A stretch of DNA of 34,441 nucleotides from Candidatus Eiseniibacteriota bacterium. Lineage in GTDB: Bacteria > Joyebacterota > Joyebacteria > Joyebacterales > Joyebacteraceae. A program made the position numbers and the translations under genes. The notes beneath the pieces are model-generated. The model was not told where the DNA came from and did not search any database. It saw only the letters and a list, made by a program, of their open reading frames with translations. The stretch covers positions 1 through 34,441 of the forward strand of contig JBDRFG010000012.1 in the NCBI GenBank assembly GCA_043819135.1, read 5' to 3'. Positions 487 through 26,433 of the stretch are shown piece by piece (the first letter of the stretch is position 1; every line of letters begins with the position of its first letter).

Positions 487-2186
487 GAACGACCCTTCGC
501 ACCATAGCAGCCTGCGTCCTCCTCTGCGTGTTCGCGGGTGGCGTAGCGGCTCAGGACGACGTGCTCTTCCGCGCGATGCAGGACGAGATGGCCCGCTCGA
601 TGACGGACCTCCGCATCGAGGGAATGGACCCGCCCTACTTCCTCTCCTACGGGCTCCAGGACGTGGACGCCGTGCGGGTCGAGGCGCGCTACGGCGCGCT
701 CGTCCGCTCCGACGTGACGAAGGCGCGCTACCTTTACGTCGAGTGCCGCGTCGGCGACCCATCGTTCGACAACACCAACTTCGTGGCGGGCTGGTCTGAC
801 CTGAACCGGCAGAGGACCGGCGTCGTCGAGGAGGACGACTACGGCGCGCTCCGCCACTCCATCTGGCTGACGACGGACGAGGCATACAAGAACGCGCTCG
901 AGCAGCTGGCTGGCAAGGAGTCCTACATCCAGACGCACCCGCAGAAGGAGGCGATCCCGGACTTCTCCCCGGCCGAGCCGTTCGTGCACATGGAAGCGCC
1001 GGTGGCACTCGTGGTCGACGCCGGGGCCTGGGAGGACGAGGTCCGGGCAGCAGCCGAAGTGCTCGGCGAGTACCCGTCGCTTCAGGATTGGAAGGTGACG
1101 TTCTCCGCGGTCGGCTCGAACAAGCGGTACCTGAACTCGGAGGGGAGCAGCCACCTCAAGGGCGGGCTCTTCAGCGACATCGAGGTCGCGGCGACCGCAC
1201 AGGCCGAGGACGGCCAGAGGATCACGAACTTCCTGCGGTACTCGACGCGCGGCGGCGACGCGCTGCCGACCGGCGAGGAACTCGCGGCCGACGTGCGCGG
1301 GATGGCGGACGAGCTGGAAGCGCTGGTGGCGGCCGAGACGCTGGACGAGTATGCGGGGCCGGTGCTGTTCACCGACGACGCAGCCGCGCAGCTCGTGGCG
1401 CAGATGTTTGCGGCACAGCTGTCGCCGGTCAAGTCTCCCCTGCTGGCCGAGGAGTGGATGAAGGACTATCTGCCTGGCGCGAAGCTCGCGGGTAAGCTCA
1501 ACCGCCGCGTGATGCCCGAGTTCATGACGGTGCGGGACGAGCCCACGCGCAGGAGCTGGGAGGGCCGGATGCTCGCCGGCTACAAGCTCGTGGACGACGA
1601 GGGCGTGCCGACCGAGAACGTGACGCTCGTGGAGGAAGGCCGGCTGGTGGGCCTGCCGACGAGCCGCGGGCCGACGAAGAAGCTGACGGAATCCAACGGC
1701 CACGCCATCACGTTCCCGAACCAGTGGACAGTGCCTGCGGCGTCGAACCTGTTCGTGGAATCGAAGAATACGAAGAAAGATCTCGTGAAGGAGCTGCGGA
1801 ACCTGGCGAAGGACTTCGACAGCGAGTTCGGGCTCCTGGTAACGAGGCTCGATGTGCCGGAGATCTCACAGCAGTACCAGTGGACCGAGAACTTCGACGA
1901 GCCGGGCGGGGCGCTCCTGACCGGACCGGTCATTGCCTACAAGGTCTACGCGGATGATGGCAGGATTGAGCCGGTACGCGGCCTCGCGTTCGACGAACTG
2001 AGCATCCGGACGCTGCGCGACATCTACGCGCTTGGCAAGGAGCCCGCGCTCACGAACATGGGGCAGTCGGTCGGCCCGGGCATGTACTACCGCATGGCCG
2101 TCGTGACGCCGGACATTCTGGTGGAGGAGATGGAGTTCACGGCGAGTTCAGCGGGCGAGCCGATGATGGTTGGGGGGCGGCCGTAG
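483..2186 (+). CDS. Secreted TldD/PmbA-family protein, TldE/PmbA-like (non-catalytic) subunit, 567 aa
   Basis: Signal peptide ending GGVAA-QDD. Family motifs include AMQDEMARS, PPYFLSY, RVGD..FDN, YAGPVLF, VRDEPT, GYKLVDDEGVP, LVEEGRL and SNGHA. There is no HExxxH at the expected position (AAAQLVAQMF). Translationally coupled to the tldD remnant. Confidence 0.85.
   Translation: MRTTLRTIAACVLLCVFAGGVAAQDDVLFRAMQDEMARSMTDLRIEGMDPPYFLSYGLQDVDAVRVEARYGALVRSDVTKARYLYVECRVGDPSFDNTNFVAGWSDLNRQRTGVVEEDDYGALRHSIWLTTDEAYKNALEQLAGKESYIQTHPQKEAIPDFSPAEPFVHMEAPVALVVDAGAWEDEVRAAAEVLGEYPSLQDWKVTFSAVGSNKRYLNSEGSSHLKGGLFSDIEVAATAQAEDGQRITNFLRYSTRGGDALPTGEELAADVRGMADELEALVAAETLDEYAGPVLFTDDAAAQLVAQMFAAQLSPVKSPLLAEEWMKDYLPGAKLAGKLNRRVMPEFMTVRDEPTRRSWEGRMLAGYKLVDDEGVPTENVTLVEEGRLVGLPTSRGPTKKLTESNGHAITFPNQWTVPAASNLFVESKNTKKDLVKELRNLAKDFDSEFGLLVTRLDVPEISQQYQWTENFDEPGGALLTGPVIAYKVYADDGRIEPVRGLAFDELSIRTLRDIYALGKEPALTNMGQSVGPGMYYRMAVVTPDILVEEMEFTASSAGEPMMVGGRP
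1431..2186 (+). repeat. Copy A of a ~756-bp direct repeat (3' end of the tldE-like gene); other copies at 21299-21897 and 25678-26433
   Basis: Direct comparison: copies A and C differ at 10 of 251 residues plus many synonymous sites. All three copies begin at AAGTCTCCCCT. Confidence 0.95.
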
Positions 2187-2246
2187 AGTGGCAGATATCT
2201 GAGTGCGAGGAGAGCCGGGGGGAAGCTACACGTAGGGGATGGAGCA

Positions 2247-4073
2247 TTAGCCATCTTCCTTGAGTCTGCAGACAACGCGGAACCCGATGCTGGCCTTCGT
2301 AGTACCCCGCGGCTCCCAGGCCCTTGCTCCGGCACGACACCGGTTGGAGTCGCTCAAGATGGAGCCGCCCCGAAGCGGCTCCCGCCCGGCCTCGTAGGAG
2401 GACATCCATGCTGGGGCTCCTTCCTCCCGCCTACACCACTCAGCGACGTTTCCAAGCGTGTCGTAGAGTCCGATCACGTTCGGACGCTTGAGCCCGACAG
2501 GAAACGCGCCCGACCCCACCTTGTTGTCAAGGAACCACGCGTGTTGCTTCTGTATGTACACACGTGATTCCAGATTCTGCTTACATTTTCGTCTAGCGCT
2601 CGGGTCTGCCGATGGAATCGGTCCTTCCTTCGGATGCAGCCCCCCCCTGCAAGCGATTTCCCATTCGCCCTCCGTCGGAAGGGAGTAAACGAACACGGGG
2701 TCCTGCGCCGTCAATCGATTGCAGAAGTCGACAGCCTCGTCATATGAGATGCTGTGCGCCGGATGATCAGGACCCGTGTGGTGCTCCCATTGACGATCGA
2801 CGTACTTCTGATATGTCTGTTGCAGTACCTCTGTCGTGCTGATGAAGAATCCCTTCTTTCTCAAGAGGAAGGGGTCGGATTCAAGCCTATCGTCCCGTGC
2901 CTGTTCGTCGGGCGCCGTCCCGACCCAATAGGAACCGCTGGGAATGTACGCGAAGCTGAGACCTGCGACCTGCGGGAACGAGTCTGGAGGCTGTTCGTGA
3001 GGCAACACCGGCGGGGGCTCGCCCAGAACCAGACCAGCAAGCCTAGCTCTGCCCGACAACCGTTCTGTCGGCAGCGACTCCCAAGTTCCCCCGCCCCCGA
3101 ACATCGAGAGAAAATCACCCAGCTTGAACGAATAGCCAACCCTCACCGAGATGATCCTGTTCATAACCGAGTAACTCTCCTCATACCCGCCAGGATACAT
3201 CTCAGCCAGATCGAGATCCCCGGCCTTCTGGAAACCCGCCCGTATCTCAAGGCTCAGGGCTCCGAGCCCTCCCAATCCCACTCTGAGGCCGCTCCCAGCC
3301 TCGTAGTACCAGTACTCAGGGCTCCAGTCATCGCGTGAAAGCCACTCGTTGGTTCCTGCGAGGCCGTAGTTCCCCACACCGACACCAAACCACATCAGTC
3401 CCACAACGATACGGCCATCAACAACGAAGTACTCAACATCCCCCATCTCACCGTACCCGTCCGCGGAGCGTTTAGTAGACCTGTGATGGCCGTAGCTCAG
3501 CCCGACCTCCCAGGGATTCGTGCCCCGTGGAATCGACAGAAACACCCTGTACATCATGTTGTCCACAAGCTGGAAGTCCTCTGACAGGAATCCGGAATCG
3601 AAGACCCCAGACTCTATCTTCGTGTTCCATTCGAATCTGACATCGCTCAGGATCTCAAAACCTAACTGTGTCCCACGGCGTCGACCGCCTTCCTTCCATC
3701 TCCATCGACTTGCCGTCGCGTCTAGGCGTACGTCGAGATTCCCGCTCAGATAGCGATCGGCGTCATTCAGTATCGACCACGAGATCTGCCGGTTGCGCCC
3801 TGCGGACAACCCCGGTCCGTAGTTCCCTCGTATCGAACGTGGGATGATCTCGTGCCGCGCCGAATCAGAGAAGACCGCTGTCATGGAAACGTCGTACACG
3901 TACTTGAGTCCGTCTGAGGGCTCAGCGAGATCGTAGTACACGATGATCTTCCCACCACTCTCGGACACTCTCACGTCGGATAGCCCCGTCCCCCCTGCGT
4001 TCCCGAAGGTCAGCAGCAGAATCACAACGGCCGGCAACAGCGCGCGAGCCAACCCGGAGATGTTGGTCAGCAT
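2247..4073 (-). CDS. Secreted FGE-sulfatase (SUMF1/TagR-like) domain protein with an N-terminal beta-sandwich-like domain and a central OM beta-barrel-like region, 608 aa
   Basis: Start moved to the ATG at 4073, which overlaps the upstream TGA and aligns with the paralog start at 23863. Signal peptide present. FGE motifs: IPSGSYWVG, FFISTTEV, SLPTEGEWEIACRGG, PNVIGLYDTLGNVAEWC, RGGS, IGFRVV. Lacks the catalytic Cys pair of true FGE. Confidence 0.85.
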   Translation of the reverse strand: MLTNISGLARALLPAVVILLLTFGNAGGTGLSDVRVSESGGKIIVYYDLAEPSDGLKYVYDVSMTAVFSDSARHEIIPRSIRGNYGPGLSAGRNRQISWSILNDADRYLSGNLDVRLDATASRWRWKEGGRRRGTQLGFEILSDVRFEWNTKIESGVFDSGFLSEDFQLVDNMMYRVFLSIPRGTNPWEVGLSYGHHRSTKRSADGYGEMGDVEYFVVDGRIVVGLMWFGVGVGNYGLAGTNEWLSRDDWSPEYWYYEAGSGLRVGLGGLGALSLEIRAGFQKAGDLDLAEMYPGGYEESYSVMNRIISVRVGYSFKLGDFLSMFGGGGTWESLPTERLSGRARLAGLVLGEPPPVLPHEQPPDSFPQVAGLSFAYIPSGSYWVGTAPDEQARDDRLESDPFLLRKKGFFISTTEVLQQTYQKYVDRQWEHHTGPDHPAHSISYDEAVDFCNRLTAQDPVFVYSLPTEGEWEIACRGGLHPKEGPIPSADPSARRKCKQNLESRVYIQKQHAWFLDNKVGSGAFPVGLKRPNVIGLYDTLGNVAEWCRREEGAPAWMSSYEAGREPLRGGSILSDSNRCRAGARAWEPRGTTKASIGFRVVCRLKEDG

Positions 4074-5479
4074 AGGCAGAACCACTCTTTGCAGACAGAC
4101 AGTGAGATCAGCCGCCCTGTTTTGGGCCGGCAGATCACGCGAAAACCGATGCTGGTCTTCTTGCTGTCCCGGGGCTCCATCGCCCGCGAGCCAGCTCGAC
4201 ACCGAGCGTACGTGCTAGTGAACGACCCGCCCCGAATCGGTTTCTCCCCCAGATGATCTTCGTACCATTTCGGATGGCCCGGATCACAACGGCACCACTC
4301 GGACAGATTGCCGTGCATGTCGTAGAGGCCAAGATCGTTCTTCTCCAACTCCGCGACCGGGCTCGGACCCGGGTCCATCCGCTTGTGCCCCATGAACCAC
4401 GCGAACTTCTGCATGGCGAGTCGCGCCGAATCAAGGCTCTTATCGAACCTGTTCTTGAACGGTCCCTCAATCCCGACCGGCCCGTTGGACGGAGGGAGGC
4501 AGGCGCGACAGGCGATCTCCCACTCAGACTCGGTCGGCAGAGAGAACTTGAAGAAGGGATCGCGCGCCGTGATTGAGTCGCAGTACGCCGTGGCCTCTGA
4601 GAAAGTGATGCTGTGCGCCGGGTAGTTGTCCCCGCTGTGCTTCTCCCACTCGAATGGTATTACGGCCCGGAAAGCGTGCTGAGTCACTTCTGTCCGACTA
4701 ATATAGAACGCTTCCACACCGACCTTCTCAACCTCGTGCTCGGTCATCGCGTCACGGCCATGCTCACCGGCGGGGGTCCCGATCTCATAGCTGCCGCCGG
4801 GAATCCTGACGAAGTCGAGGCCGAAGAGAAGCGGCATCTCCTTCGGGATCTCGTCCTCAGCTCTTGCTATCGCGTCCGGTCCGATTCCGAGCCTCCGGCA
4901 CTCGTCAATCACAGCAAAGGCGGCAGGAATGTCACCGTTGCGAACGTGGTCTCTCACCTGGGCGACGAGTTCATCCCCCCTGCCGCGCAGGGCCCGGTCG
5001 ACACTCTTCAGAACGCCGCTCAGTTGCCTTTCCTGCGACTCAGAGAAGGAACCCTGATTGATGTAGAACGCGACGAGACTGCGAACCTGCTTGTACTTGC
5101 CCTGCGCCACGAGGTCGTTCAGGACCTCCAGAGCATCCTGGAGGTGCAGTTCATCGGCCGTCCGCTTGACCTTCTCAGCCATGCTGCGACACGCCAGGTC
5201 AGCCTCATCGATCTCGGAGACCGTCGCGGCACCTGAAGCCTCCAGGCTATCGACGGCCGCCTGGAAGGCCGCGAGATGGGTCCTGGCCGACTCCACGTTC
5301 TCCAAGGCCAGCGCGTTCCGGACCTCCGTACGAGCGCGACCCCAACGCCCGTAGAGGGGATTCGTCGGAGTCAGAGGCTCCGGTTCACGAGGCAGAAAGA
5401 CGAAGACTGCCACGGCAAGAAGAGAGAGCACCGCAAGGGCAACGATGAAGACCACCTGCGGTTTCGCTAGTCCTCGCAC
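4067..5479 (-). CDS. Membrane-anchored FGE-sulfatase (TagR-like) domain protein, 470 aa
   Basis: N-terminal TM helix (VVFIVALAVLSLLAVAVFVFL), a helical spacer, then FVRIPGGSYEIG, FYISRTEVT, LPTESEWEIACRA, NDLGLYDMHGNLSEWC, RGGSF and IGFRV. Confidence 0.85.
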   Translation of the reverse strand: MRGLAKPQVVFIVALAVLSLLAVAVFVFLPREPEPLTPTNPLYGRWGRARTEVRNALALENVESARTHLAAFQAAVDSLEASGAATVSEIDEADLACRSMAEKVKRTADELHLQDALEVLNDLVAQGKYKQVRSLVAFYINQGSFSESQERQLSGVLKSVDRALRGRGDELVAQVRDHVRNGDIPAAFAVIDECRRLGIGPDAIARAEDEIPKEMPLLFGLDFVRIPGGSYEIGTPAGEHGRDAMTEHEVEKVGVEAFYISRTEVTQHAFRAVIPFEWEKHSGDNYPAHSITFSEATAYCDSITARDPFFKFSLPTESEWEIACRACLPPSNGPVGIEGPFKNRFDKSLDSARLAMQKFAWFMGHKRMDPGPSPVAELEKNDLGLYDMHGNLSEWCRCDPGHPKWYEDHLGEKPIRGGSFTSTYARCRAGSRAMEPRDSKKTSIGFRVICRPKTGRLISLSVCKEWFCLC

Positions 5480-5481
5480 GG

Positions 5482-7413
5482 TCAGTCAGTCACTTTCACC
5501 AGCGCCAACCGGAAGCCGGTCAGATCGTCCCGGTCGGACCACTCCCGGGATCGGCGAACCCCCACCTGAAGCAGGGGCGCAGGCTCTCCGTTGGCGCCAC
5601 CTCTCACGGCGACAGGTGCAGATTCCTTGTGTGACGATGGCAACGGAGTGATGAGACCCTCGGTCAGGAACGGGTCTCGGGGATCCCATCCCTCGAACAG
5701 CAACGCTTTTCTCTTGGCATCGAGCGTGGTGAGCATGTCCCGGTCGAAGTGCGTGCAGGTCAGCTCGCTCACGTTGCCGGTCATATCGCAGACCCCGCGA
5801 TCGCTCTTGTCATACCTGTTCGAGCAGACAGCCCGCAGCCCCGGAGTTCGGATGCTCTCCAGCGCTTCCTCGGCGGTGCTGTTCGGGAATGAGTACTTGC
5901 GATCATCCGCACGGGCCGCCATCTCCCACTCGATCTCATGAGGGAGCCTGATTCGCCACTCGGTTCCGGTTCCCAGCTCAGCCTGGAGCCACTCGATGAA
6001 AGGGACCACATCCAGGTAACTGAGTCCTGTGACCGGCAGGCTTGCGATGTCTTCAGGAAGCTCCGTCTCTTCCCATCTCTTGAACCTCTTGTAGTGCGAC
6101 TGGAGAACCGAAGGAACATGAGCTTCGGAGCCCTCGTCGCTCGAGAGATACTGCCAGTACTGGTCGCACGAGACCTCGGAGCGCTGAATCAGGAATGGGT
6201 GGAGAAGGGGCACAGAGACCAGAGCCTTCCGTAGGGAAGCACTGACCTCGGAGAATCCCCTCTTGAGAAGGTACGGATCATCGCGCTGCTCCTCGGTCAG
6301 ACCGACCACGTAGGCTGTGCTCCCGGTCCTCTCGGGTATGAACACGAAGTCGTAGGTGGAGTTGCCAATGTGAATCTCGCCCGACCGCCGATCCAGGACT
6401 ATGCCATCCAGCCTCTCGCCTGGATCTTCCACTGCTTCACTGCGTGCATTCCTCTCTGTGCTGTCCGAGGGATTCCAGGTCCAGACGTCATAGTTGATCC
6501 GGCTAACCCAGCCGCCTTTCCTCTCGTAGAGAGTCCTGCCGGCCCACACCACCTTGATCGCGAGGACGGACTCCGTGGATTCGATCCCCTCCGTCATCTC
6601 GCCCGTGAGCTCGATCATGTTTCCAGCTGGCGGCTTGCGATTGAGCTCGACCTCGTTATCCGGGGTGCTGCTCCAGCAACCCACGACAACATCCTCATCG
6701 AGGTGATGTCCATAGAGGGAAACCCTGAGTTCCTTCGACTCCTGGTCCAGGGTCGCCGTCACGTCTTGGACGCCGGGGGAAGGGATGACCGTGACGTCGT
6801 CGCTCCAGATAGCCTGACCGAAGGCCATGATGGTGAGTTCGCTCTCGTCTCCGGAGAGACCCCACGGCACGGAGACCTTCAGCGTCGCGTCGGTCGGAGT
6901 TGACTCAAGGGAGACCCTCTCCAGAGTCACCGAAAGCTCCGACAGAGGAACGCCAACTTGCGTGATATCAAAAGAGCGACCGGCCTGGAGTGTCCGGGAC
7001 CCTCCCGTGAACTCGATCCGAGGTTTCTCCACCACGAAGATCCCCTCGTGCCATATGTAGCTGCGGTCACCTACTCTGACCTCGACCGGCTTCGGCCCGG
7101 TTTCGGCAACAGTGTACAGCACGAACTCGACCTCGACCTGATCTCCCTCACGGCTCGTGACTTCCGCGTCCTTCCCGTTCACCCAGACACGCAGGTCCTG
7201 ATCCTCCGGCAGCCCCTCCACCGTCAGAGTTGCGGTCTCATTCCGTTCTCTGCTCTCCCTGAGGTAGCACCGAGGTTGAACGTCGAGAATCTTGACCTGG
7301 CTGTCGGCGGCGAGCAGCTCGACCGAGGGCACACTCGCCAGAGCCAATGCCAGGGCGGCGACGGGCAGGAACAGCGGCCGGAGACGCACACGAATCGGAC
7401 ACAGCGGATACAT
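5482..7413 (-). CDS. Secreted protein with Ig/IPT-like beta domains and a divergent C-terminal FGE-sulfatase domain, 643 aa
   Basis: RBS-like AAGGTGAGG and a signal peptide. The N-terminal half is beta-rich. FGE motifs: FLIQRSEVS, LPVTGLS, RLPHEIEWEMAAR, GVCDMTGNVSE, RGG, GFRL. The Ig assignment is less certain than the FGE assignment. Confidence 0.8.
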   Translation of the reverse strand: MYPLCPIRVRLRPLFLPVAALALALASVPSVELLAADSQVKILDVQPRCYLRESRERNETATLTVEGLPEDQDLRVWVNGKDAEVTSREGDQVEVEFVLYTVAETGPKPVEVRVGDRSYIWHEGIFVVEKPRIEFTGGSRTLQAGRSFDITQVGVPLSELSVTLERVSLESTPTDATLKVSVPWGLSGDESELTIMAFGQAIWSDDVTVIPSPGVQDVTATLDQESKELRVSLYGHHLDEDVVVGCWSSTPDNEVELNRKPPAGNMIELTGEMTEGIESTESVLAIKVVWAGRTLYERKGGWVSRINYDVWTWNPSDSTERNARSEAVEDPGERLDGIVLDRRSGEIHIGNSTYDFVFIPERTGSTAYVVGLTEEQRDDPYLLKRGFSEVSASLRKALVSVPLLHPFLIQRSEVSCDQYWQYLSSDEGSEAHVPSVLQSHYKRFKRWEETELPEDIASLPVTGLSYLDVVPFIEWLQAELGTGTEWRIRLPHEIEWEMAARADDRKYSFPNSTAEEALESIRTPGLRAVCSNRYDKSDRGVCDMTGNVSELTCTHFDRDMLTTLDAKRKALLFEGWDPRDPFLTEGLITPLPSSHKESAPVAVRGGANGEPAPLLQVGVRRSREWSDRDDLTGFRLALVKVTD

Positions 7414-7420
7414 ATCAGCC

Positions 7421-10400
7421 TCACCTTTTCTGCGACTCTTTGAGGGCCACGACGGGATCGACGCGAGACACCGCCCTTGCAGGGAAATAGGTGCCCACGA
7501 CGCATACCAGCACTATGGCGACAGCGACCCAGAGGAAGTCAACGGGGCCCAGCGCGCAGGCCGACTCCCCCACGATCAGGTTGATCAGGCCCGCGATCAC
7601 AAGCCCGAAGATCACAAGGAGCACACCAGAGATGAGTGCGACCAGGATGCCCTGAGTCAGCAACAGGGTCATGACGCCACCTCGAGAAAGACCCATGATC
7701 CGCAGCGTGCCGATCATCCCCTTCTTGCGTTCACTGACGTCGTGGAACACGATCCAGACGGTCGCAAACGCGATGACGACGCCGATCACCGAAAGGACAT
7801 TGACGAGGAAATCCAGGATCGACCGGTACTTCTGGACCTCCTTGACTCTTGCCTGATTGGACCGAACGCCGAATCGCCCGCTCAGCTTCTCGTGCATGCC
7901 GACGACCTGGTAGACATCGTGGACGAAAACCCGGGCCTTGTAGTACTGACGCTCTTCCGCTTGCGATCTGAACTGACCCAATCCCGTGTCAGGTTCGGCG
8001 ATCCCGTCCCTCGTCATCAAGATGTGAGCCAGGAACGCCGCCGGGACTATCGCGAGGCGAGGCGGCTCCGGCTCCTCGACAGGAACGGTGTCTGCAGCCG
8101 TAGCCGTCTCCGCACCCGGGGGCGAATCGGGAGCGGCCGCGCCGACCGAGGAGTCAGCTGCGCTCGCCGATGGAGAGTCACCGATCACACCGGCCATCTC
8201 CTCCGGCACGTCCTCTGCCGGACTCGGCGAATCCACACCATCGTCCGGGCCGTCATCTCCGTCGGCAGCCAGGTCCGGCTCTGTTTCTTCGGCCTCGCTG
8301 AGGCCTGCGGCTGTGACCCCAGGCACGACGGAGTCCGCGGCGGTGTCAGCGTGGCCATCGGTGTCGGGAGACCCGGTTCCGGATTCCTCCGCGACGACGG
8401 TCTCCGGGGGTTCGGCGTCAGGTCCGGCGCGGGGTTCTACAGCATCCCGCTCCTCCGACCCGTGTACATCGACCGGCAGGTTCAGAACGAGGGTGTCAAG
8501 CGCGACGGCAAGCCTGCCCGATTGTGTCTCCTCTCCGCGATCGCCAAACGTGACCTGCCAGTCGTGCTCCGTCTTGGGGAAGGGACCCCGCGGGTATCTC
8601 AGGTACCTCCGCAGCCACCGGGACGACGCCGACATCCCCACCAGGGTCACCTCTTCGCCGTCCAGGGTCGCCGAGATCGGCTGATTCCATGGCATCACTA
8701 TGGCATCGCTGTCGGTCAGGAGATCCTCTACGCTCCAGATCCTCTCTCCCAGCCAGCGAAGGTCGCCTTCCTGCCGACCCGAGAGCAGGCGATAGACGAG
8801 CGGTCTGAGGAGTCCCATGGCGTTGGTCTCTTCGCGGCTCTTGAGGAATCCCCAGAGGTTCGCCGCAGGATCATCCGGTTCGAGCCTCTCTACCTCCAGA
8901 CCCCGGCTTCTGAGGGCCGTCTGCTCCCGCCCGCTCAGCTCGTTCTTGGCGAACAGAAGGAACGCCTCATACCGCGGATCGATCGGTTGGGGACTCCCGG
9001 GCCAGCCACGGGCAGGCACGTGCCGACCGGCTTTGAAGTCGGCGATGTCGCCGGTCAGATCCAGATGTATGTAGGCCGTCCGTGCGGTTACGTCGCCCAG
9101 GATGTTGCTTACTCGAAGTGTCGCCGGCTGGTACTCCTTCTCTACGCCTTCCTCGTCAACGAATCTGCTGACCCACACCGTCGCATCAGAACCGACCTCG
9201 ACCTCAAGCTCCTCTGCGAGACTGGCGGGCAGCACGATGGAATTGCTATCGAATCCCGTGAAGTCCTGATCCGCGTATACCATCAGGAGCTTCGGATCGG
9301 TCGGTAGCGTTCCGGTGAGGGTGATGCTGAGTTCGCGATCCTCATATCTCTCCGGGAACACGACGTGCGTCACGCTGGGGATCACCATCTCTATCTCCGG
9401 GTGACTCGCAGCGATCTCGCTCAGCGCCTCGCCGGTCAGGCTGCCGGTGCTTGCCAGCGGGGTGATGGTCAGCTCCCTTGCGGTGGGGCTCTTCGTCAGG
9501 TCCCGCTTGAAGTCCTCAACAAGACCCGATCGCATACCGCGCAGCAGGAGCATCAGTAGACCGATCGCAACGATGACCAAGGCGCTCCTGCAGGTCCTAA
9601 GTAGGAACGACGGGTCCCTGCTGTGTTTCTTGTCCCGGATGAAGGCGATCGGGTTCTCGAAGAAGCCGTAGAGGGGCCCCAGAGCGTCCTTTACTCCCAG
9701 ACGTGCGTGCTCGAGGACCTCGTTAAGCCTCCCGCGCGGCGCCACGGGCGAGGCCGGCTCAGAACCGACTTCCCTCACGGGCGGGATCGAAGCCGGTTCG
9801 GCTTCCGACGCGTCCGGCGGCACAGGCTCGATCCCGGAATCCGATTCGGGCAGCTGGTCGTGAATGTCCTCCCTGGGCTGATTGCGGTCGACGTGGGTGA
9901 CCGAACCCACTCGCGGGGCCACATCGTCCATCTTGATGATGCAGTCGGAGAAGTCTCGCGCCAGAGTCTCGTCGTGGGTCACCATAATCACTGTCTGCCC
10001 CAACCGACGAGTCTGCTTCCTCAGAGCGGTGATTGCCTGTTCCGCTGTCTTGCGGTCCAGGTCGCTGGTCGGCTCGTCCAGCATCACGAGGGGCGGATCG
10101 TGGATCAGGGCTCTGGCGAACACACCTCGCTGCCTCTGCCCACCCGACAGCTCGCCGGGCAGGTTCCCGATCTTCGAGCCCGTCTCGGAATCGAGCCCGA
10201 GCTGCTTGAGTCTGTCCCTCGAATGCCGGTCGGGTTCACTCAAGCCGCCCAGCAGTCTCGGAATCGCGACGTTGTCGATGAGCGGCAGCGACGGAATCAG
10301 CTCCCCGCCCTGCAGGCAGAAGCCGATGAGAGACCTGCGAAGCGTCTCGCGCTCTATCCGGGTCATCGAGGGTTCGCCTTCATGACCCTTGCCCCCGTAG

Positions 10401-10702: not shown

Positions 10703-10780
10703 GCCTACCGCCTTCCATGCTCCCAGGTGGGCAGCGGCCCGGTCGCATGGAACCTGCAACCGGGCCTGCCCGCCTGGCAT

Positions 10781-13276: not shown

Positions 13277-13286
13277 GTCCATCTTA

Positions 13287-13697: not shown

Positions 13698-13785
13698 GTA
13701 GTAGGTTTCGTCACGACGTAGTGTCACGCCAATATCTGTTGGTGCTCCGCCCTTCACACCGCCACAAACTGCGAGCGAGGTGGAA

Positions 13786-15726: not shown

Positions 15727-15740
15727 AGGGGTCGGTCTCA

Positions 15741-15908
15741 ATGGCGTCCATGTCGCTGACCGACTACTACGATTGGCTCAAGAGCGTCCACGGTTGTCAC
15801 GTCACACTCGAGAGCTTCCTTGAGGATCCGACGATTTGGTATCGGTTGCACCGCACGGCGCGAGACAGGGAGATGCACGCATTCATCGAGTTGGCCGACC
15901 TGCCCTGA
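15741..15908 (+). pseudogene. Tandem extra copy of the vWA gene 3' end (55-aa mini-ORF)
   Basis: 15744-15908 aligns without gaps to 15562-15726, with 21 mismatches in 165 bp (hand count). Confidence 0.8.
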
Positions 15909-15999
15909 GCAACTGTGATCTCGCGCACGACGGATCAGTGGCCGTCCCGTGCCTCTGGATGTAGAGCAGGCGCGCGGGACAGATAAGGAGGGAAGGACC

Positions 16000-18347: not shown

Positions 18348-18425
18348 GTTGCGGTGCAGTCGACGTGACAGCCAAGCTCGTCGGGCTGCATACGCCAATT
18401 GGACTGCCGGCTGACTGCCGCCAGT

Positions 18426-19439
18426 TCACTTCACACTCGGCCATTTGGAGGCGAGTGCGAAGAGGACGATTCCGGCTCCGATGACGGAGCGCAGCGAGAT
18501 GAACGTCCGCTTCGAAAAGCCGCCAACGTAGAAGATCTCACCGGAGTCGTATGTAATGCCCAGAATCGTAAGCAGCAGGGCCCACAGCCATATTGAGTTC
18601 AGAAGAACTGGACCCGCCACGTCCACCAAGAGGGCCGCGGGAGACACGATGATGAATGCCAGGAGCAGAGCCCAAGCTGCGATCTTGAATCCGAACGTCC
18701 AGGCGTAGGTGAAAGCAATCATGCGTCGCTCAAAGGTCTCCTCGATCATGAAGACCAGCAGGGCACCGACTGCGAACACAAACGCGAAGAGCTGCTCGAC
18801 GCTCAAGCCCACGGTCGTTAGAACGCGGTTCAGGAGGAAGCCAAGCTCGAAGCTGAGTATCGCGCCGAGTCCACCCATGAGAAGCGATGTGCTGAGCACG
18901 TCGCGGTGATGCTCTGTGAGCAGCTGCCTGAGCCGAGTTGCCACATCGCCCGGTGTGCTGGAACGGAACACGAGCCTCGACCCTAGAGTGTTCATGTGGA
19001 CCACCAAGTCCTCCGCGTTGCCGAGAATCGTGATGCCGCTGGGCGTCGCGTCCACAATCGTCCGCCCGACGACCCGGCGCTTGGCACCTGCCACGTGCGC
19101 CGCGACCTCCAGAGGATCCTCTAATTCGAGCGCCGCCACCTCCGTCTCGAGGTTTCCTGGAAGCGCCGGCATCAGAAGACTCCTCAGACTGCCGATGGTC
19201 GGGCTGGGACCATGCAAGCACCACACTGGCAAGATCACCTCTCGCCTCTTCTCTGACGGAAGGGCCTCCCAGGCCAACCGGAGATCCCGCACGGCCGCTT
19301 TGAGAGGCATTGGGCCGCGAGACTCAGGCTCGTGCAGAGACGAGATCTCGAGGCGCCCCGCGCGACCGCGTGCCAGACCGCATAGCCAGTGGCGTGAGAC
19401 TTGGAGACCATTGCGCGTCACTCTGAGTTCCTCTTCCAT
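18426..19439 (-). CDS. Hypothetical polytopic membrane protein (soluble N-terminal half, about 5-6 C-terminal TM segments)
   Basis: Long ORF filling the gap, co-oriented with the upstream gene, with successive hydrophobic stretches. Start uncertain (ATG 19439, GTG 19448 or later). Confidence 0.65.
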   Translation of the reverse strand: MEEELRVTRNGLQVSRHWLCGLARGRAGRLEISSLHEPESRGPMPLKAAVRDLRLAWEALPSEKRREVILPVWCLHGPSPTIGSLRSLLMPALPGNLETEVAALELEDPLEVAAHVAGAKRRVVGRTIVDATPSGITILGNAEDLVVHMNTLGSRLVFRSSTPGDVATRLRQLLTEHHRDVLSTSLLMGGLGAILSFELGFLLNRVLTTVGLSVEQLFAFVFAVGALLVFMIEETFERRMIAFTYAWTFGFKIAAWALLLAFIIVSPAALLVDVAGPVLLNSIWLWALLLTILGITYDSGEIFYVGGFSKRTFISLRSVIGAGIVLFALASKWPSVK

Positions 19440-19477
19440 GGGCTGCACACGCTAGTTCGGATGCTGTCGCAGGTTCC

Positions 19478-21094
19478 CTACTTCGAGCGAGGTGCGAACG
19501 AGATCTCGCGAATCTTGTCGCGCTCAAGTTGCAGCAGAATGCCGGACTCCAGAGTGATTACGAGAACCTCCTCCTCCAACATCCCCAGAAGTGTGTCACC
19601 GTTCCAGAGGGCGATCTCGTCGACCTTGGACACGCCGCCCTCGAAGGTAATCCTGGAAATCTGTGACGTCTTGAGAGTGATGGTATCGTCGGACGTCCTC
19701 AGCGTCAGAGAAGGAGTCTGCACAGTCCCGGAGAGAATGGCGCCGCTAGTCAGAGCGAAGGCATCGAGGCTCGATGCTGCAGGGTCACGAGGTGCTTCGG
19801 GAGTCACATCCGTGAAGGCATCGAGGCCCGGCGCGGCAGGGTCATGAGGTACTTCGGAAGCCACATCCGTGGCCGGCCCCCGGCCACCAGAGGTCACTCG
19901 AAGACTGATGATCTTGTCCGGCGCCGTCACCGTGCCGTTGCGCGAACTGTCTCCTTTCTTGATCGAGTCGATCACATTCATGCCTTCAATCACCTCACCG
20001 AAGGCGGCGTACTTCCCATCCAAGTGTGGGGCATCTCCCAGCATGATGAAGAACTGGCTACCGCCGGAGTCGGGGTCCGACGCGCGAGCCATCGACACGA
20101 CGCCGCGCTTGTGATGCACCTCACGAGTGAACTCGCCCGGGATTGTGTAGCCGGGCCCGCCGACCCCCTCCTTGTGCTCCACATCCCCCGTCTGAGCCAT
20201 GAAACCACCAATCACACGGTGGAACGTCACGCCATCATACCTGCCTTCGTTGGCAAGATACGCGAAGTTGACCACTGTGTTCGGCGCAACGTCTTCCCAG
20301 AGCTTGATGCGAACAACGCCCTTCGTGGTCTCCATGAGTGCCGTCTTCTCACCCGGCGGCGGATAGGAAACCTGCTTTTCAAGGAGCGCATTTCCGTCGC
20401 TGTACTTCAGAGTGGCCTCACTGAAATGCAGATCCTCGAGGTTGGACCGGGCCCGATCGGTTAGGGCGTCATCCGCGGTTGATTCCGCGAGATAGCGCTC
20501 GACCTGCTCGATATTGGCGCGTGCGATGGTAGCTACCTCGCCCTCCGGCGCGATCTCGACGACGGTCTCCCACTCTCTCACCGCACCGGCCAGGTCATCG
20601 GCGTCCGCGTGCCACACAGCGAGATTGAAGTGTGCTTCCACGCAATTGGGATCAATGGCCAGCGCTTCCCGGTACATGCGAACCGCGTCAGCAGAACGCA
20701 GCATGACGTGGTACACCGACCCAAGGCTCGCGCGCGCCATCGCGCTGGAGGGATCGAGCCGCACTGCCCGTTGCAGTTCCCTCAGTGCTCGTTGGTGGTC
20801 CCCGCGGTCAGTGTACGCCGCTCCGAGGTTGATTCTAGCTCCAGCATGGAGGGAGTCGATCCGTATCGCTTCAAGGTACGCGTCGATCGCCTCGTCCAAC
20901 AAGCCGCTCTCGTAGTAGCTGTTCCCGAGCTCTATTCTCAACTCGGCATCATTGGGATGGGCGAGAACCTTCTCGTTCAGCCGGGCCGTCTCATGACTGG
21001 TTTCCGTCGCCTCGGCAGCGATCGACGCACACGCCAGGATTGCCAATAGGGTGAGCCCGAAACGCCCTCTTGTCGCCGCCCATGTGATTCGCAT
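19478..21094 (-). CDS. Secreted TPR-repeat plus cyclophilin-type peptidyl-prolyl isomerase with a C-terminal beta-rich tandem domain, 538 aa
   Basis: RBS GAGGAGG before the ATG at 21094; signal peptide; about 4 TPRs (ELGNSYY..G..DEAI, NLGAAY, SLGSVY, AHFNLA). Cyclophilin motifs FHRVIGGFMAQTGD, GGPGY, GVVSMAR, SQFFI and HLDGKYAAFGEV. Confidence 0.9.
   Translation of the reverse strand: MRITWAATRGRFGLTLLAILACASIAAEATETSHETARLNEKVLAHPNDAELRIELGNSYYESGLLDEAIDAYLEAIRIDSLHAGARINLGAAYTDRGDHQRALRELQRAVRLDPSSAMARASLGSVYHVMLRSADAVRMYREALAIDPNCVEAHFNLAVWHADADDLAGAVREWETVVEIAPEGEVATIARANIEQVERYLAESTADDALTDRARSNLEDLHFSEATLKYSDGNALLEKQVSYPPPGEKTALMETTKGVVRIKLWEDVAPNTVVNFAYLANEGRYDGVTFHRVIGGFMAQTGDVEHKEGVGGPGYTIPGEFTREVHHKRGVVSMARASDPDSGGSQFFIMLGDAPHLDGKYAAFGEVIEGMNVIDSIKKGDSSRNGTVTAPDKIISLRVTSGGRGPATDVASEVPHDPAAPGLDAFTDVTPEAPRDPAASSLDAFALTSGAILSGTVQTPSLTLRTSDDTITLKTSQISRITFEGGVSKVDEIALWNGDTLLGMLEEEVLVITLESGILLQLERDKIREISFAPRSK
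19757..19870. repeat. 57-bp tandem duplication encoding a 19-aa linker repeat
   Basis: Units 19757-19813 and 19814-19870 are 49/57 identical; they encode TDVASEVPHDPAAPGLDAF and TDVTPEAPRDPAASSLDAF. Confidence 0.9.
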
Positions 21095-21298
21095 CCCACT
21101 CCTCCTCAGCGGCTCTCCCGCACTTGCGCGAGTGTCCATCGGTCCCGTCGAGCACCCCTCTCTGCCAACATGAATGAGACACAGAGCCTACTCTAGTTTA
21201 GTGTAGAGGGCGAGCAGGGAGCTCGTTATGAATGTCGACTCAGGAGTGGTTCTCGAACGAGAGGTAGAGGTCTTGGCGAAGGCCGCGCGGCGCCCGAG

Positions 21299-21897
21299 AA
21301 GTCTCCCCTACTGGCTGAGGAGTGGATGCAGGACTACATGCCCGGCGCGAAGCTCGCGGGGAAGCTCAACCCGCGCGTGATGCCGGAGTTCATGACGGTG
21401 CGGGACGAGCCCACACGCGAGAGTTGGGAAGACACGAGGCTCGCCGGGTACAAGCTCGTCGACGACGAGGGCGTGCCGACCGAGGACGTGACGCTCGTGG
21501 AGGACGGTCGGCTGGTGGGGCTGCCGACGGGCCGCAGCCCGACCAAGAAGCTGACGGAATCCAACGGCGACGCCATCACGTTCCCAAACCAGTGGACCGA
21601 GAGCTTCGACGAGGGAGGCTCGGCGCTCTTGACCGGGCCGGTCGTGGCCTACAAGGTCTACGCCGATGGTGGTTGGATGGAGCCGGTGCGCGGTCTGGCG
21701 TTCGATGAACTGAGCATCGGACGCTGCGCGACATCTATGTGCTCGGCAAGGAGCCCGCGCTCACGAACAAGGGGCAGGCAGCAGGCCCGAGGATGTACTA
21801 CCGCATGGCCATCGTGACGCCGGACATTCTGGTGGAGGAGATGGAGTTCACGGTGAGTTCAGCGAGTGAGCCGGCGATGGTTGGGGGGCGGCCATAG
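21299..21897 (+). pseudogene. Copy B of the tldE-like 3' end, degenerate
   Basis: Starts at AAGTCTCCCCT. Carries a 156-bp internal deletion at 21588-21599 and a -1 frameshift near 21717 (AGCATCGGACG vs AGCATCCGGACG). The ancestral TAG is at 21895-21897. Confidence 0.92.
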
Positions 21898-22009: not shown

Positions 22010-23863
22010 CTAGTCCTGGCGACCATCCTTCGGCCTGCAGATGACCCGAAATCCGATGCTGGGCTTCTTGGTGTCACGCGGCTCCCAGGCCCTCGCACCG
22101 GCACGACAACGACCGAAGTCGCTCATGATGGAACCGCCGCGTAGCGGCTCCTTCCCAGCCTCGAAGGCCCCCTGCCATGCAGGGACTCCTTCCTCCCGCA
22201 TGCACCACTCAGCGACGTTCCCCAGCATGTCCTGCAACCCGATCACGTTTGGCTTCTTGAGTCCGACGGGGAACGCGCCGGATCCCACCTTGTTGCTCAG
22301 GAACCACGCGTGCTGCTTCAGCACGTAGTCGCACGATTCCAGGTTCTGCCTGCACCTCCGTCTGTCGGCCGGGTCCGCTGCGGAGACAGGGCCCTCCTCC
22401 GGGTCCAGTCCACCCCGACAGGCGATCTCCCACTCGCCCTCAGTCGGAAGAGAGTAGACGAAGTCCCGGTCCTGCTCGGTCAGGAGCCTGCAGAACTCGA
22501 TGGCTTCGTCGTAGGAGACGCTGTGCGCCGGGTAGTCAGTGCCACTGTGGTACTCCCACTGACGATCGACGTACGCCTGATACGTCTGCTGCGGCACTTC
22601 TGTCTTGCTGACGAAGAACGCCTGCTTGCGCAGAGAGAAGGGCGCCGGTTCGAGCAGCGGATCTCTGGCCTCCTCATCGGGCGGTGTTCCGACCAGATAG
22701 GAACCGCCGGGAATGTACACGAAGTCGAGGCCGACAACCTGCGGGGATGGACCGGGCGGCTGTACCTGGCGAGGGATCCGCCGCGGTGCGCCCATGGTCA
22801 AATTGGCGAGCCTGCCCGCTCCGGTCAGGCGCCTCGTCGGCAGGGGCTCCCACCTCCCTCCTCCCTTGAACATCGAGACGAAGTCTCCCAGCTTGAACGT
22901 GTAGCCGACCCTGACCGAAGTCACGTTCCGTCTGAACGTGAGGGACTCGTCCTGCCAGGGCAGCACCTCCTGGCTGATATTCCCGATCTTCTGGGTTCCA
23001 ATCCGCGCGTCAACGCTCAGCGACCCGAGGTTCCACAACCCCATTCTCAGGCCGCCCCCGACCTCGTAGTACCAGTACCCCGGATCCCAGTCCTCGTGCT
23101 CGAAACCTTCGAAGTCGAGGAGCCTTCGCTCCTCCAGGGCGTGGTCCCCCGCCCCCAGACCCAGCCACAACCTTCCGAGGACGATGCGGCAGTCTGCAAC
23201 GTAGTACCTGATCTGGTGAACTGAGTAGTAGGCGTCCTCGTCGCCGTCCAAGGTGGACCCGTGATAGCCGTAGCTGAGTCCGAGCTCCCACGAGTCCGTT
23301 CCCAAGGGAAACGACACGAAGAACCTGCTCATCAGGTTCTGTCCGGGCTCGAACCCGTCTGAAGAGAACTTGGTGTGCATGTCCCCTTCCGAGTCCGACT
23401 CGATCACATCGTCCAGCTCGAACCAGACGTCGCTCATCAGCTCGAAGCCCAGCTGCGCGCCGGGACGACCTCCCCGTCCCTCCTGCCACCGCCATCGATT
23501 GATCGTCGCGTTGAGACGTATGTCGAGATCCCCGTTGAGGTAGTTTCCCGCGTCCTCGAGTATCGGCCACGAGATGCGTCGGTTGTTCCCCGGGGGCAGC
23601 TTGCTGCCGTAGTCCCCGCGGATCGAACTGGGGCGGATCTCGTACGCCGTGGAGTCAGTGAAGACCGCCGACATGGAGATGTCGTACTCGCACTTCTGGC
23701 CACTCACCGGCGGGGCGAGGTTGTATAGTACGATGACGTCCTGTCCCTCCGCGGACACCCGTATGTCGGACACTCCCTGTGCCCCCGCGCCCACGGAGAA
23801 CACGAACTGGAACAAGATGGCCAGCAGAGACGCGCGAGTCAGTCTGTAGATGTCGGCATGCAT
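22010..23863 (-). CDS. Paralog of 2247-4073: secreted beta-barrel plus FGE-sulfatase domain protein, 617 aa
   Basis: Intact and colinear with 2247-4073, with the same FGE motifs (SLPTEGEWEIACRGG, GNVAEWC, RGGS, IGFRV). Start MHADIY aligns with MLTNIS. Confidence 0.85.
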   Translation of the reverse strand: MHADIYRLTRASLLAILFQFVFSVGAGAQGVSDIRVSAEGQDVIVLYNLAPPVSGQKCEYDISMSAVFTDSTAYEIRPSSIRGDYGSKLPPGNNRRISWPILEDAGNYLNGDLDIRLNATINRWRWQEGRGGRPGAQLGFELMSDVWFELDDVIESDSEGDMHTKFSSDGFEPGQNLMSRFFVSFPLGTDSWELGLSYGYHGSTLDGDEDAYYSVHQIRYYVADCRIVLGRLWLGLGAGDHALEERRLLDFEGFEHEDWDPGYWYYEVGGGLRMGLWNLGSLSVDARIGTQKIGNISQEVLPWQDESLTFRRNVTSVRVGYTFKLGDFVSMFKGGGRWEPLPTRRLTGAGRLANLTMGAPRRIPRQVQPPGPSPQVVGLDFVYIPGGSYLVGTPPDEEARDPLLEPAPFSLRKQAFFVSKTEVPQQTYQAYVDRQWEYHSGTDYPAHSVSYDEAIEFCRLLTEQDRDFVYSLPTEGEWEIACRGGLDPEEGPVSAADPADRRRCRQNLESCDYVLKQHAWFLSNKVGSGAFPVGLKKPNVIGLQDMLGNVAEWCMREEGVPAWQGAFEAGKEPLRGGSIMSDFGRCRAGARAWEPRDTKKPSIGFRVICRPKDGRQD

Positions 23864-23896
23864 GATCAGAACCATTCGTGTGAAGGGGATGCGATG

Positions 23897-24462
23897 TCAG
23901 TCGCCTTGCTTGCGTCGGCAGACGACACGGAAGCCCAGGCTCGTCTTCTTGCTCGCACGGGGCTCCATCGCCCGTGACCCGGCCCGACACCTCGCGTAGC
24001 TGCTGGTGAACGAACCGCCCCGTATCGGTTTCGACCCAAGATAGTCCTCGTACCGCTCCGGATGGCCGGGGTCACAACGGCACCACTCCGCCATGTTGCC
24101 ATGAACGTCGTACAGGCCGAGTTCGTTCGGTTCCAGCTCTGCCACGGCCCCGGGGCCAGGGGGAACCCGCTTGTGTCCGAGGAACCAAGCGAACTTCTGC
24201 ATGGCGAGACTCGCCGAGTCCAAGCCCAGAGCGAACCTGTCCTTGAACGGTCCCGTGATCCCCACCGGCCCGTTGGACGGAGGGAGACAGGCGCGACAGG
24301 CGATCTCCCACTCGTACGGTATCACTGACCGGAACGAGCGCTGAGTGACCTCGGTGCGGCTGATGTAGAACGCCTCAACGTGGACCTGTTCAACCTCGTG
24401 CTCGGTCATCGCGTCACGCCCGAACTCACCTTCGGGAGTGCCTATCTCGTAGCTGCCGCCGG
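23897..24462 (-). pseudogene. Truncated, internally deleted paralog of 4067-5479 (FGE domain only)
   Basis: Homology begins at GGSYEIG (24462); the TM anchor and spacer are missing. A 126-bp in-frame deletion at 24304-24313 removes the core PAHSI...LPTE segment. Confidence 0.88.
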
Positions 24463-24490
24463 TTGGGCAGCAGTGTTCATCGGTGGAGCG

Positions 24491-25363
24491 CTAGAAGACC
24501 TGGGCGATGCCTACGGTGAGCTGCATCCCCCCGAAGTCCAGTTCGACGGGACCGCCATCCTCGGTGGAGAAATAGCCTCCCCACTCGTCCCTCGCCCACC
24601 GGAGAACCTCTCCTTCGTTAATGCCCCACGCTTCGTAGGGAACGCCGTTCTCTGTTGTCCTGAACTCGTCGACCTCAAGCCTGTCGATCTGTGCTTTCCG
24701 GAACGTCGCGCACGCTGTCACCAACAGCTCATCCGTGAGATTCCACTCCGCTCCCAGACCGCAGTGGAATGCTCCCCCGCTCCCGGAGGTCTCAATGCGC
24801 TCGTCCAACACCACTTCGTATTCCCATCCGTCGTACTCAACATACCGGTCACGGCCGTAGAAGGCGTGTGCGAACGTGCCGTGGAGATAGCCCACGCCGG
24901 CAACAAGTCGCAGCGACACGCCCGTGTCTCCCAGTGGTAATCGGTAGATGCCATAGAGCGATGCCACGGTGGCCGTTGGAGCGTAGTCCGCATCGGCCTC
25001 TATCCACCACCACCCGTACTCGTCCTCAATGGAGATAAACCAGTCGTAGCCCCCGCCGCCGGAGAACCACACGAACTCCGCCCCGACGCCGAACCTGTCG
25101 CTGATCAGATACTCCGCGGAGAGGCCGCGGGTGAGCATTCCTTCTATGTGATCGGCGTTCCGGCCGGACTCGTCCTGCCGCCAGATGCCCCCCATGCCAG
25201 ATTCGTCGATCGTCATATTCAGGTCTTCCTGGCCACCCAGCCCCCTGCCCAGCAGGCCCCCGACTCGGAACCGCGCGAAGTCGTCTTGCGCCAGTGCCGG
25301 CCGCGCCCCGGCGGACAAGAGGATCGCGCACGCGACCGCCGCAATGACCACCCGCTGCAGCAT
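24491..25363 (-). CDS. Outer-membrane beta-barrel protein (OmpW/OmpA-barrel-like, long loops), 290 aa
   Basis: Signal peptide ending PALA-QDD. Amphipathic strands (GLSAEYL, FGVGAEF, SLYGIYRL, LRLVAGVGYL, FHCGLGAEWN) and a C-terminal strand ending in Phe (LTVGIAQVF). Confidence 0.8.
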   Translation of the reverse strand: MLQRVVIAAVACAILLSAGARPALAQDDFARFRVGGLLGRGLGGQEDLNMTIDESGMGGIWRQDESGRNADHIEGMLTRGLSAEYLISDRFGVGAEFVWFSGGGGYDWFISIEDEYGWWWIEADADYAPTATVASLYGIYRLPLGDTGVSLRLVAGVGYLHGTFAHAFYGRDRYVEYDGWEYEVVLDERIETSGSGGAFHCGLGAEWNLTDELLVTACATFRKAQIDRLEVDEFRTTENGVPYEAWGINEGEVLRWARDEWGGYFSTEDGGPVELDFGGMQLTVGIAQVF

Positions 25364-25677
25364 GCTTCCCCCGATCTCAGGACGCACCTGACCTGCTACT
25401 GTCCGACCACAGGTCGTGCCGTGCAAATCGCCGTCTAGGATAGGAAGGTGAATTCGGACTGGGCCGGATCGCCCTGCTCGCGCACGCGCCCGATGCTGGC
25501 TCCGAGCCCCGCAACATCGATACTACAATCGAGCAACGCCCGCAGACAAGCCCCTTCAGCGACACGTCACCACAGGCGGCGGCTGGCTCACACAGGAGGT
25601 GCTCTGTGGGCAGTAGGAGGTAGTCGTCTGTGCGGATTGCTGGTCCGCCAGCGAAGATGCCCGAGTGAACACCGGTG

Positions 25678-26433
25678 AAGTCTCCCCTATTGGCAGAGGA
25701 GTGGATGAAGGACTGCATGCCCGGCGCGAAGCTCGCTGGGAAGCTCAACCGCCGCGTGATGCCCGAGTTCATGACTGTGCGGGACGAGCCGACGCGCAAG
25801 AGCTGGGAGGGTCGGATGCTCGCCGGCTACAAGCTCGTCGACGACGAGGGCGTGCCGACCGAGAACGTGACGCTCGTGGAGGAAGGCCGGCTCGTGGGCC
25901 TGCCGACGAGCCGCGGGCCGACCAAGAAGCTGACGGAGTCCAACGGCCACGCCATCACGTTCCCGAACCAGTGGACCGTGCCTGCGGCGTCGAACCTGTT
26001 GGTCGAGTCCAAGAAGACGAAGAGCGACCTTGTTGGTGAGCTGCGGAACCTGGCGAAGGACTTCGACAGTGAGTTCGGGCTCCTGGTAACAAGGCTGGAC
26101 GTGCCGGAGATCTCGCAGCAGTACCAGTGGACCGAGAACTTCGACGAACCGGGCGGGGCACTGCTCACCGGGCCGGTCGTGGCCTACAAGGTCTACGCGG
26201 ATGACGGGCGGATGGAGCCTGTGCGAGGGCTGGCATTCGACGAGCTGAGCATCCGGACGCTGCGTGACATCTACGCACTGGGCAAGGAGCCCGCTCTCAC
26301 GAACATGGGCCAGTCGGTCGGCCCGGGCATGTACTACCGCATGGCCGTCGTGACGCCGGACATTCTGGTGGAGGAAATGGAGTTCACGGCGAGTTCAGCT
26401 GGTGAGCCGATGATGGTCGGGGAAAGGCCGTAG
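25678..26433 (+). pseudogene. Copy C of the tldE-like 3' end; frame intact but 5'-truncated
   Basis: 251 codons nearly identical to 1431-2183. Similarity extends about 6 bp upstream (CCGGTG vs CCGGTC) and then stops. No signal peptide or convincing RBS. Confidence 0.9.

Follow-up and report, generated by a model that had tools for sequence, protein, structure and literature searches.

How does a bacterial genome come to carry three 3′ ends of one gene, all cut at the same point and each followed by different DNA? We asked this of a 34,441-nt stretch (the window), which is contig C12 of a 2.69-Mb, 174-contig metagenome-assembled genome (MAG) of Candidatus Eiseniibacteriota. The MAG was built from short reads and is 92% complete, and its close relatives are titled Candidatus Eisenbacteria. 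The gene is tldE, and its repeated end occurs six times in this genome: as copies A, B and C in the window and as copies J1, J2 and J3 on contigs C4 and C19. An initial annotation of the window proposed that islands insert repeatedly at a defined site in tldE and restore its end. We compared 31 genomes of the phylum. The array and the empty loci of relatives showed that cargo was added repeatedly behind tldE while the gene end was kept whole, as had been proposed. To explain how, we favor, at a probability of roughly 55%, additive capture of foreign alleles of the variable region between tldE and ispG by homologous recombination, with one old joint being inherited.

Three tldE ends in the window

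The gene and the copies of its end are as follows.

483..2186, plus strand: intact tldE/pmbA-like gene, 567 amino acids, Pfam PF19289, without an HExxGH motif
1422..2186, plus strand: copy A of the 765-bp repeat, codon 314 to stop, the last part of the intact tldE
21291..21897, plus strand: copy B, a tldE 3′ fragment of 607 bp with a 156-bp deletion and a 1-bp frameshift
25669..26433, plus strand: copy C, a tldE 3′ fragment with an open frame of 252 amino acids from the GTG at 25675; its left flank has no assigned source

We named the gene tldE because it has no HExxGH motif, whereas its tldD partner, which lies upstream on C4, has one. As first reported, AAGTCTCCCCT is found at 1431, 21299 and 25678, in direct copies that share one 5′ breakpoint. 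To the left of the AAG, homology to native alleles continues for 9 bases in C and for 8 in B, and the repeat was thus defined as 765 bp starting at codon 314. The starts of B and C agree within one base, all three copies end at the stop codon, and within a few bases of each stop the DNA is unrelated among copies. The replacement segment of ~756 bp proposed earlier fits A and C (765 bp by alignment) but not B, which is shortened by its deletion.

Copies A and C were 91% identical, the pieces shared with B 88–90%, and the 3′ piece of B and C 84%. Differences between A and C were mostly synonymous, as first noted: 10 of 251 amino acids differed, with a synonymous divergence (dS) of 0.37, a nonsynonymous divergence (dN) of 0.023 and dN/dS of 0.064. 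Across the 15 pairs among the six copies, dS ranged from 0.27 to 0.49 and dN/dS from 0.06 to 0.29, indicating alleles of different lineages that were mostly under selection historically; the earlier suggestion that the copies had served as functional gene ends was therefore upheld. Selection on the fragments is now relaxed. Residues unseen in full-length alleles occupied 40 of 1138 sites in fragments vs 19 of 2032 in full-length alleles, ~four times more, in a count whose rows are not independent and whose three reference proteins are identical over the repeat part. The longest exact stretch common to any two copies was 65 bp, too short to collapse in an assembly with contig overlaps of up to 141 bp. 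A chance origin or a collapsed repeat is thus out, and the misassembly that the initial annotation had raised as a caution is very unlikely.

Further units and their starts

Contigs C4 and C19 share an exact 81-bp overlap and together form a second array, in the order tldD, tldE J1, cargo, J2, cargo, J3, 85 bp, and a tRNA-fMet 3′ fragment. J1 is full-length and frameshifted near codon 481, J2 begins at codon ~329, and J3, the last copy, begins at codon 314. Frames were open in C, J2 and J3, with C and J3 keeping the 252-aa frame from the GTG. Three pairs of a sigma-54 response regulator and an FG-GAP histidine kinase lie on C4/C19 (L024–L026), of which one precedes tldD and the two cargo units hold one apiece. 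A third, broken copy of tldD on C65 (L027) has an internal deletion and a 3.9-kb insertion upstream; 1.8 kb of C65 is 99% identical to genome G002.

The window itself opens with a piece of tldD.

231..486, plus strand: tldD 3′ fragment, codons 484–567, with a hairpin and unrelated cargo before it, the cargo extending onto C108

Copy A, lying behind this fragment, is thus a fourth unit with a different start. Contig C108 (L028), directly left of the window, carries an SDH-type serine protease (45–1220) and an AEP-TOTE primase/helicase gene (1478–3793), the latter possibly a conflict system; this protease/primase DNA is 97% identical in genome G004.

Eight unit starts could be mapped in assembled DNA. 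Four were at codon 314 (B, C, J3 and locus L015 of genome G020), and the others were at tldD codon 484 (the window start) and at tldE codons ~329 (J2), ~508 (G020 L017) and ~521 (G004 L016). Scattered breakpoints had been named as evidence against a defined site, and half of the starts are indeed elsewhere while half are at codon 314. The G004 start is best read as a later deletion because the same C108 cargo (97%) precedes the fragment; the L017 fragment lies directly behind a whole tRNA-fMet and a hairpin. In an independent read run, X2, the loose ends of two contigs ahead of 1431 proved homologous to the flank of B.

The protein of the repeat was matched in 10 of the 31 genomes, whose contigs mostly break at the repeat, and a protein search gave 24 matches, many of them broken or partial tldE ends. 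Four read runs were sampled in small shares, giving sparse contigs of other samples only; none of these contigs spanned a unit boundary of the window, and none held an excision joint at the site. Viral contigs scanned for the repeat yielded 0 loci.

Empty loci and the DNA left of the shared start

Relatives revealed the empty state. The G002 contig (L013) begins within tldE, at codon 269; behind the gene come the 117 bp also present behind J3, then 200 bp, and then convergent ispG and selB. In L019/L021, tldD-tldE and a hairpin precede ispG, selB, murA, prmC, prfA and thyX; ispG, selB and thyX passed NCBIfam cut-offs, and the other three are genes that we take to be murA, prmC and prfA from their sequences. 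The empty state can be written as tldE, 85 bp, tRNA fragment, ispG, and by eye the tail of protein P0047 appears to read through that same spacer. Empty loci had been predicted and do exist (G002, L019/L021), but the predicted order of tldE, hairpin and kinase was not found in them.

The empty loci allowed us to identify the DNA left of codon 314 in two fragments. The left flank of G020 L015 consists of 218 bp of the ispG 5′ part and the selB 3′ end, antisense, 92–94% identical to the natives of this genus type. That of J3 retains ~60–70 bp of the same ispG/selB DNA, decayed to 73% identity; selB was its best non-self match among 53,512 genome windows (nhmmer E 5.9e-5). Both flanks stop at selB alignment column 94–95, 32 codons before the selB stop, at a point ~2.1–2.2 kb downstream of tldE codon 314 in empty loci. 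The tldE and selB sites share six identical bases, which are present in J3 and replaced in G020. The matches listed in one flank comparison were those of J3 and G020. Thus downstream host DNA is joined to upstream host DNA in direct orientation in two of the four codon-314 fragments (J3 and G020), while the evidence is borderline for B and no such joint was found for C. These junctions have the form of a tandem-duplication joint rather than of an arm of an attachment (att) site. In this genome selB (280–633) and ispG run continuously on C53 across the joint site, and tldE A is intact.

Descent from a single truncation had been raised as a competing account. J3 and G020 do carry the same selB-derived flank, as expected of descent from one joint; for B and C such descent is possible. 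The G020 fragment contigs are 91% identical to G002 vs 70–72% for G020's own ispG, and L015 may be foreign to the G020 bin. A cross-genus joint in G020 was considered and dropped; the fragment contigs look like DNA of another genus.

Exchange inside tldE

We compared the full-length copies A and J1. They differed at 17 of 477 positions (3.6%) up to window position 960 and at 71 of 462 (15.4%) from 960 to 1422 (Fisher P = 2e-10), whereas A and L019 differed by 19% and 24% in the same two parts. Exchange therefore occurred inside tldE, away from codon 314, with the ancestry switching near 960 (~codon 160). This shows homologous exchange between the only two close full-length alleles, and an earlier site-specific event is still compatible with it. 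Taken together, the switch away from codon 314, the host selB flank and the lack of a shared arm spoke against the defined integrase site first proposed. The accompanying suggestion of RecA-type exchange between the long repeats fared better, such exchange being the likely motor of the array.

How the array may have formed

In the scenario that we favor, tldE and the convergent host operon ispG-selB-murA-prmC-prfA-thyX enclose a variable region. On one or more occasions, a joint of the duplication type would have linked the antisense selB 3′ end (codon ~602) to tldE codon 314 through the 6-bp microhomology, giving a unit of tldE 3′ end, variable DNA, ispG and selB end. Further units would then have been added by homologous recombination, with the 765-bp tldE end as landing pad, probably after natural transformation; the genome has ComEC and DprA. 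An incoming end would complete tldE, and the old end would be displaced downstream, behind the new cargo and its joint. Decay and deletion of the spare ispG/selB DNA would leave a sharp common start with unrelated-looking left flanks, and later deletions would have made the other starts. Homology-facilitated illegitimate recombination is a related route. What is shown is the array itself, the empty loci, the relaxed selection on fragments, recombination inside tldE and, for two fragments, the selB joint. That B and C go back to this joint, how and in which direction units were transferred, and that transformation carried them are our inferences.

Two further observations support this scenario. 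Identical DNA of 117 bp follows J3 and the tldE of the G002 empty locus, and in G016, which belongs to a different genus, it is the ispG-selB side that is duplicated, through a joint of its own. In this mirror-image array (L035, G016:C23, 1072–2053 and 7718–8753), a foreign ispG copy (78%) is fused to deleted pieces of the genome's own selB, with the joint at the selB start, ahead of 5.7 kb of cargo and native ispG.

Several results weigh against it. Mosaicism within the 765 bp was weak: an incompatibility test gave p = 0.93, and max-chi reached p ≤ 0.05 in 4 of 15 tests within the repeat (best 0.005, uncorrected). A 5′ excess of damage in the fragments was not significant (p = 0.09, with the gradient inflated by a misaligned G020 start). 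A 6-bp microhomology is unremarkable: tldE and the 3.2 kb that follow it have 2463 such pairs between them. Five of the 6 joint bases differ between G020 and J3, and the G020 remnant, with 14 differences from the nearest native in 218 positions, is young while that of J3 is old; sequence and age fit independent formation of the two joints equally well. Searches to the left of B and C revealed no selB remnant (at 16 nt, p = 0.19 for B and 0.49 for C; no match in nhmmer and joint-anchored searches), and thus both would have lost selB to within a few bases of the joint; nor was one found left of J2. Lastly, the best joint-anchored match of B's flank in the seven-gene operon was thyX near codon ~22, 10.4 kb downstream in L019, at p = 0.03 for 22 nt and 0.11 for 30 nt, uncorrected for 7 flanks and 2 lengths.

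Alternative explanations

The last of these results bears on the most serious alternative, which we regard as possible but doubtful: repeated cutting or initiation at tldE codon 314, with the end joined to variable places downstream (selB twice, thyX once and one other), and units then spread by homologous recombination. Candidate agents would be a nick site, a one-ended transposition or relaxase-like start, or a structure-prone site. The start common to four assembled fragments and the two X2 contigs agrees with such an activity, as do the difference in sequence and age between the G020 and J3 joints and an imperfect palindrome, centered on CAGCTG, that ends at the start point in native alleles. 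The flank of B is central here.

21215..21290, minus strand: left flank of B, with weak resemblance to the 5′ part of host thyX (a lead only); a homologous flank occurs in run X2

This flank reads AFAKTS like thyX, and the X2 flank reads VAFAKT by eye. Repeated initiation would account better than an inherited joint for B, for C and for the odd G020 joint. The thyX match is borderline, however, with p = 0.08–1.0 in a second test, and thyX is absent from the top genome-wide matches of B's flank. The flank of C had no match in the 10–48 kb downstream in five relatives, and the C, J2, window-start and G004 flanks had no significant source in the downstream operon of those relatives or in their own genome. 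No candidate enzyme is linked to the site, and this 92%-complete genome yielded no VirD4-type coupling protein. A one-ended capture system, in which codon 314 is repeatedly linked to differing points of the essential operon and alleles are stacked without an integrase, is a tentative idea on the same evidence.

An integrase acting in trans is unlikely. It would use tldE codon 314 as attB, and its islands would carry the 765-bp replacement end in attP. The gene-restoring tandem architecture, the common start, the empty loci and the recombinase genes of the genome (7 PF00589 and 3 PF07508 matches) are all consistent with this. No recombinase was found between the repeats, as the initial annotation had stated, but an intact one lies 3.5 kb beyond copy C.

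29891..31765, minus strand: large serine recombinase, intact, whose 3′ end reads across the tRNA-fMet att
30028..30048, plus strand: 3′-end fragment of tRNA-fMet that serves the serine recombinase as att and belongs to a genus-wide array

This recombinase has its own tRNA-fMet att. The exact att core occurs in 8 copies in this genome and in 2–9 in each of 7 same-genus genomes (reversed control 0–4), recombinase tails lie at several copies, and two att lengths were seen, ~34 bp and 13–20 bp. Array loci are the two window features, C68, C137, C92, C97, C53 and C19. One copy lies between tldE and ispG in this genus, away from the flank of the tRNA gene itself. We tried this att as a look-alike of the tldE start and found no excess over background, with an equal score in 12–18 of ~667 windows in A and J1 and in 158 of 672 in L019. 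The tRNA-fMet array is thus a second, nested system with its own site, which leaves the shared tldE start unexplained; judging by L017, it may relocate parts of the tldE array. According to the 2014 Islander paper (PMC4383910), no serine integrase was known to use a tRNA gene as its target. Against an integrase at codon 314 stand also the lack of a common arm left of B, C, J2 and J3 (6 pairwise tests, p = 0.19–0.99), the host gene that is the sole identifiable flank, and the failure of A and J1 to switch there. None of the 24 window open reading frames (ORFs) between repeats, or of the 10 ORFs of C19, encodes an integrase specifying this site. Moreover, the identity blocks of gene-restoring islands reach ~250 bp in one study (bioRxiv 10.1101/2022.07.18.500453), a third of the 765-bp repeat seen here.

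It is very improbable that selection on an expressed C-terminal TldE domain kept the boundary. The start does sit just past the degenerate metal-binding helix of tldE, and C, J2 and J3 have open frames; yet B is broken, the G020 copy has a deletion, the fragments carry the excess of unseen residues, no promoter-like site precedes C, and a signal peptide is lacking. An assembly or binning artefact is scarcely credible because, although this is a short-read MAG whose second array and C65 could stem from a co-binned relative and the G020 fragment contigs look foreign, A, B and C share one contig with at most 65 exact bases in common, a B-type flank is joined to a fragment in an independent run, and the G004 fragment lies behind the same C108 cargo.

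Cargo and other features of the window

The remaining features of the window are the cargo of the units.

2247..21139: cargo of unit 1, with three FGE-sulfatase-domain genes, ABC/FtsX, two VWA genes, DUF1598, TPR-cyclophilin, and ORFs without assignment
22010..25426, minus strand: cargo of unit 2, with an FGE-domain gene, a truncated second FGE gene and an outer-membrane beta-barrel gene
26462..26508: GC-rich hairpin 3′ of copy C, recognized from its sequence
26597..29977, plus strand: Ser/Thr kinase-NTPase-TPR gene (cargo)

The hairpin and kinase first described behind copy C were both present; no T-run terminator was called at the hairpin. The two convergent FGE genes said to be the same behind A and B are homologues, but only 71% identical in nucleotides, and the second is cut to 170 aa behind B. 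Cargo Pfam matches were to FGE, VWA, ABC, OMP, two-component and FlgD families. The GC content at third codon positions (GC3) was 0.69–0.82 in cargo vs 0.88–0.91 in tldD/tldE, and 0.69–0.80 vs 0.89–0.91 when the cargo of unit 1 was set against tldD/tldE; because ispG and selB also have values of 0.76–0.80, GC3 alone is no proof of a foreign origin. ARAGORN found no tRNA in the window, and Rfam gave only two sub-threshold chance matches there.

The two VWA genes (10781–12856 minus, 13780–15726 plus) are divergent paralogues (~70%), and at 15562–15904 there is a direct repeat of 161 bp (89%) of the second gene's end. The TPR-cyclophilin gene contains a 57-bp tandem pair (19757–19870, 86%). The sequence at ~18344–18400 is a degenerate member of a repeat whose motif is matched 26 times in the genome. 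The matches, most of which end in GTTAG and lie 0.6–4 kb apart on C2, C66, C79 and C121, resemble the attC sites of integrons; C126 has a partial IntI-like gene at its contig end (256 bits over 212 of 315 positions). A 668-aa ORF at 32388–34394, with no Pfam match and a weak NCBIfam PRK07078 match at residues 6–130, may be part of the serine recombinase's element.

Comparison with known systems

Gene-restoring tandems are also exemplified by icd prophages and by the accretion of cis-mobilizable elements (CIME). Like the tandems of tRNA-gene (tDNA) islands described in the Islander report (PMC4383910), the tldE array combines an intact target, cargo, co-oriented displaced 3′ fragments, tandem arrangement and empty loci. 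In contrast to them, it has no integrase in any unit, no shared att arm, a neighboring host gene as its identifiable left flank, and crossovers inside the gene, away from the repeat start. The array is therefore outside the integrase-driven family by two tested features, the site-specifying integrase and the conserved element-derived arm. Tandem duplications or merodiploids with a novel joint, which can be created by natural transformation (PMC3784515), are alike in the joint of downstream to upstream host DNA, direct orientation, surviving parent genes, repeats that serve homologous recombination, and the presence of competence genes. Here, however, the copies are not self-duplicates but alleles of different lineages, each with different cargo, and the arrangement is stable and of long standing, having kept one flank while the other eroded. 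The additive flexible genomic islands of Alteromonas share a hotspot, variable cassettes, target-end direct repeats and envelope-related cargo; theirs is a tRNA-end repeat with site-directed integration (PMC4898812), whereas three quarters of a kilobase of a protein gene is repeated here. The mafB-CT orphan toxin cassettes (PMC4287609) also have 5′-truncated copies behind a full gene and homologous exchange, but in tldE the C-terminus is conserved (85–96% identical among copies), the DNA after the stop varies, and the cargo has no toxin-immunity Pfam pairs. In the open-access literature we found no report of tldE as an integration target, nor of gene-end arrays so long.

These results indicate that arrays resembling tandem integrase islands can arise without an integrase, from a single duplication joint, and that a site-specific enzyme cannot be concluded from a common breakpoint by itself. 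Such arrays escape island finders whose criteria include an integrase and a short att. If the thyX lead were true, a fixed-end activity of unexplained nature would be at work; and if one-ended capture were true, host gene ends would become mobile 765-bp landing pads and a replacement island would have been turned additive. In the scenario that we favor, one joint makes the variable region between conserved genes additive, and every allele that arrives mends the gene where it lands.

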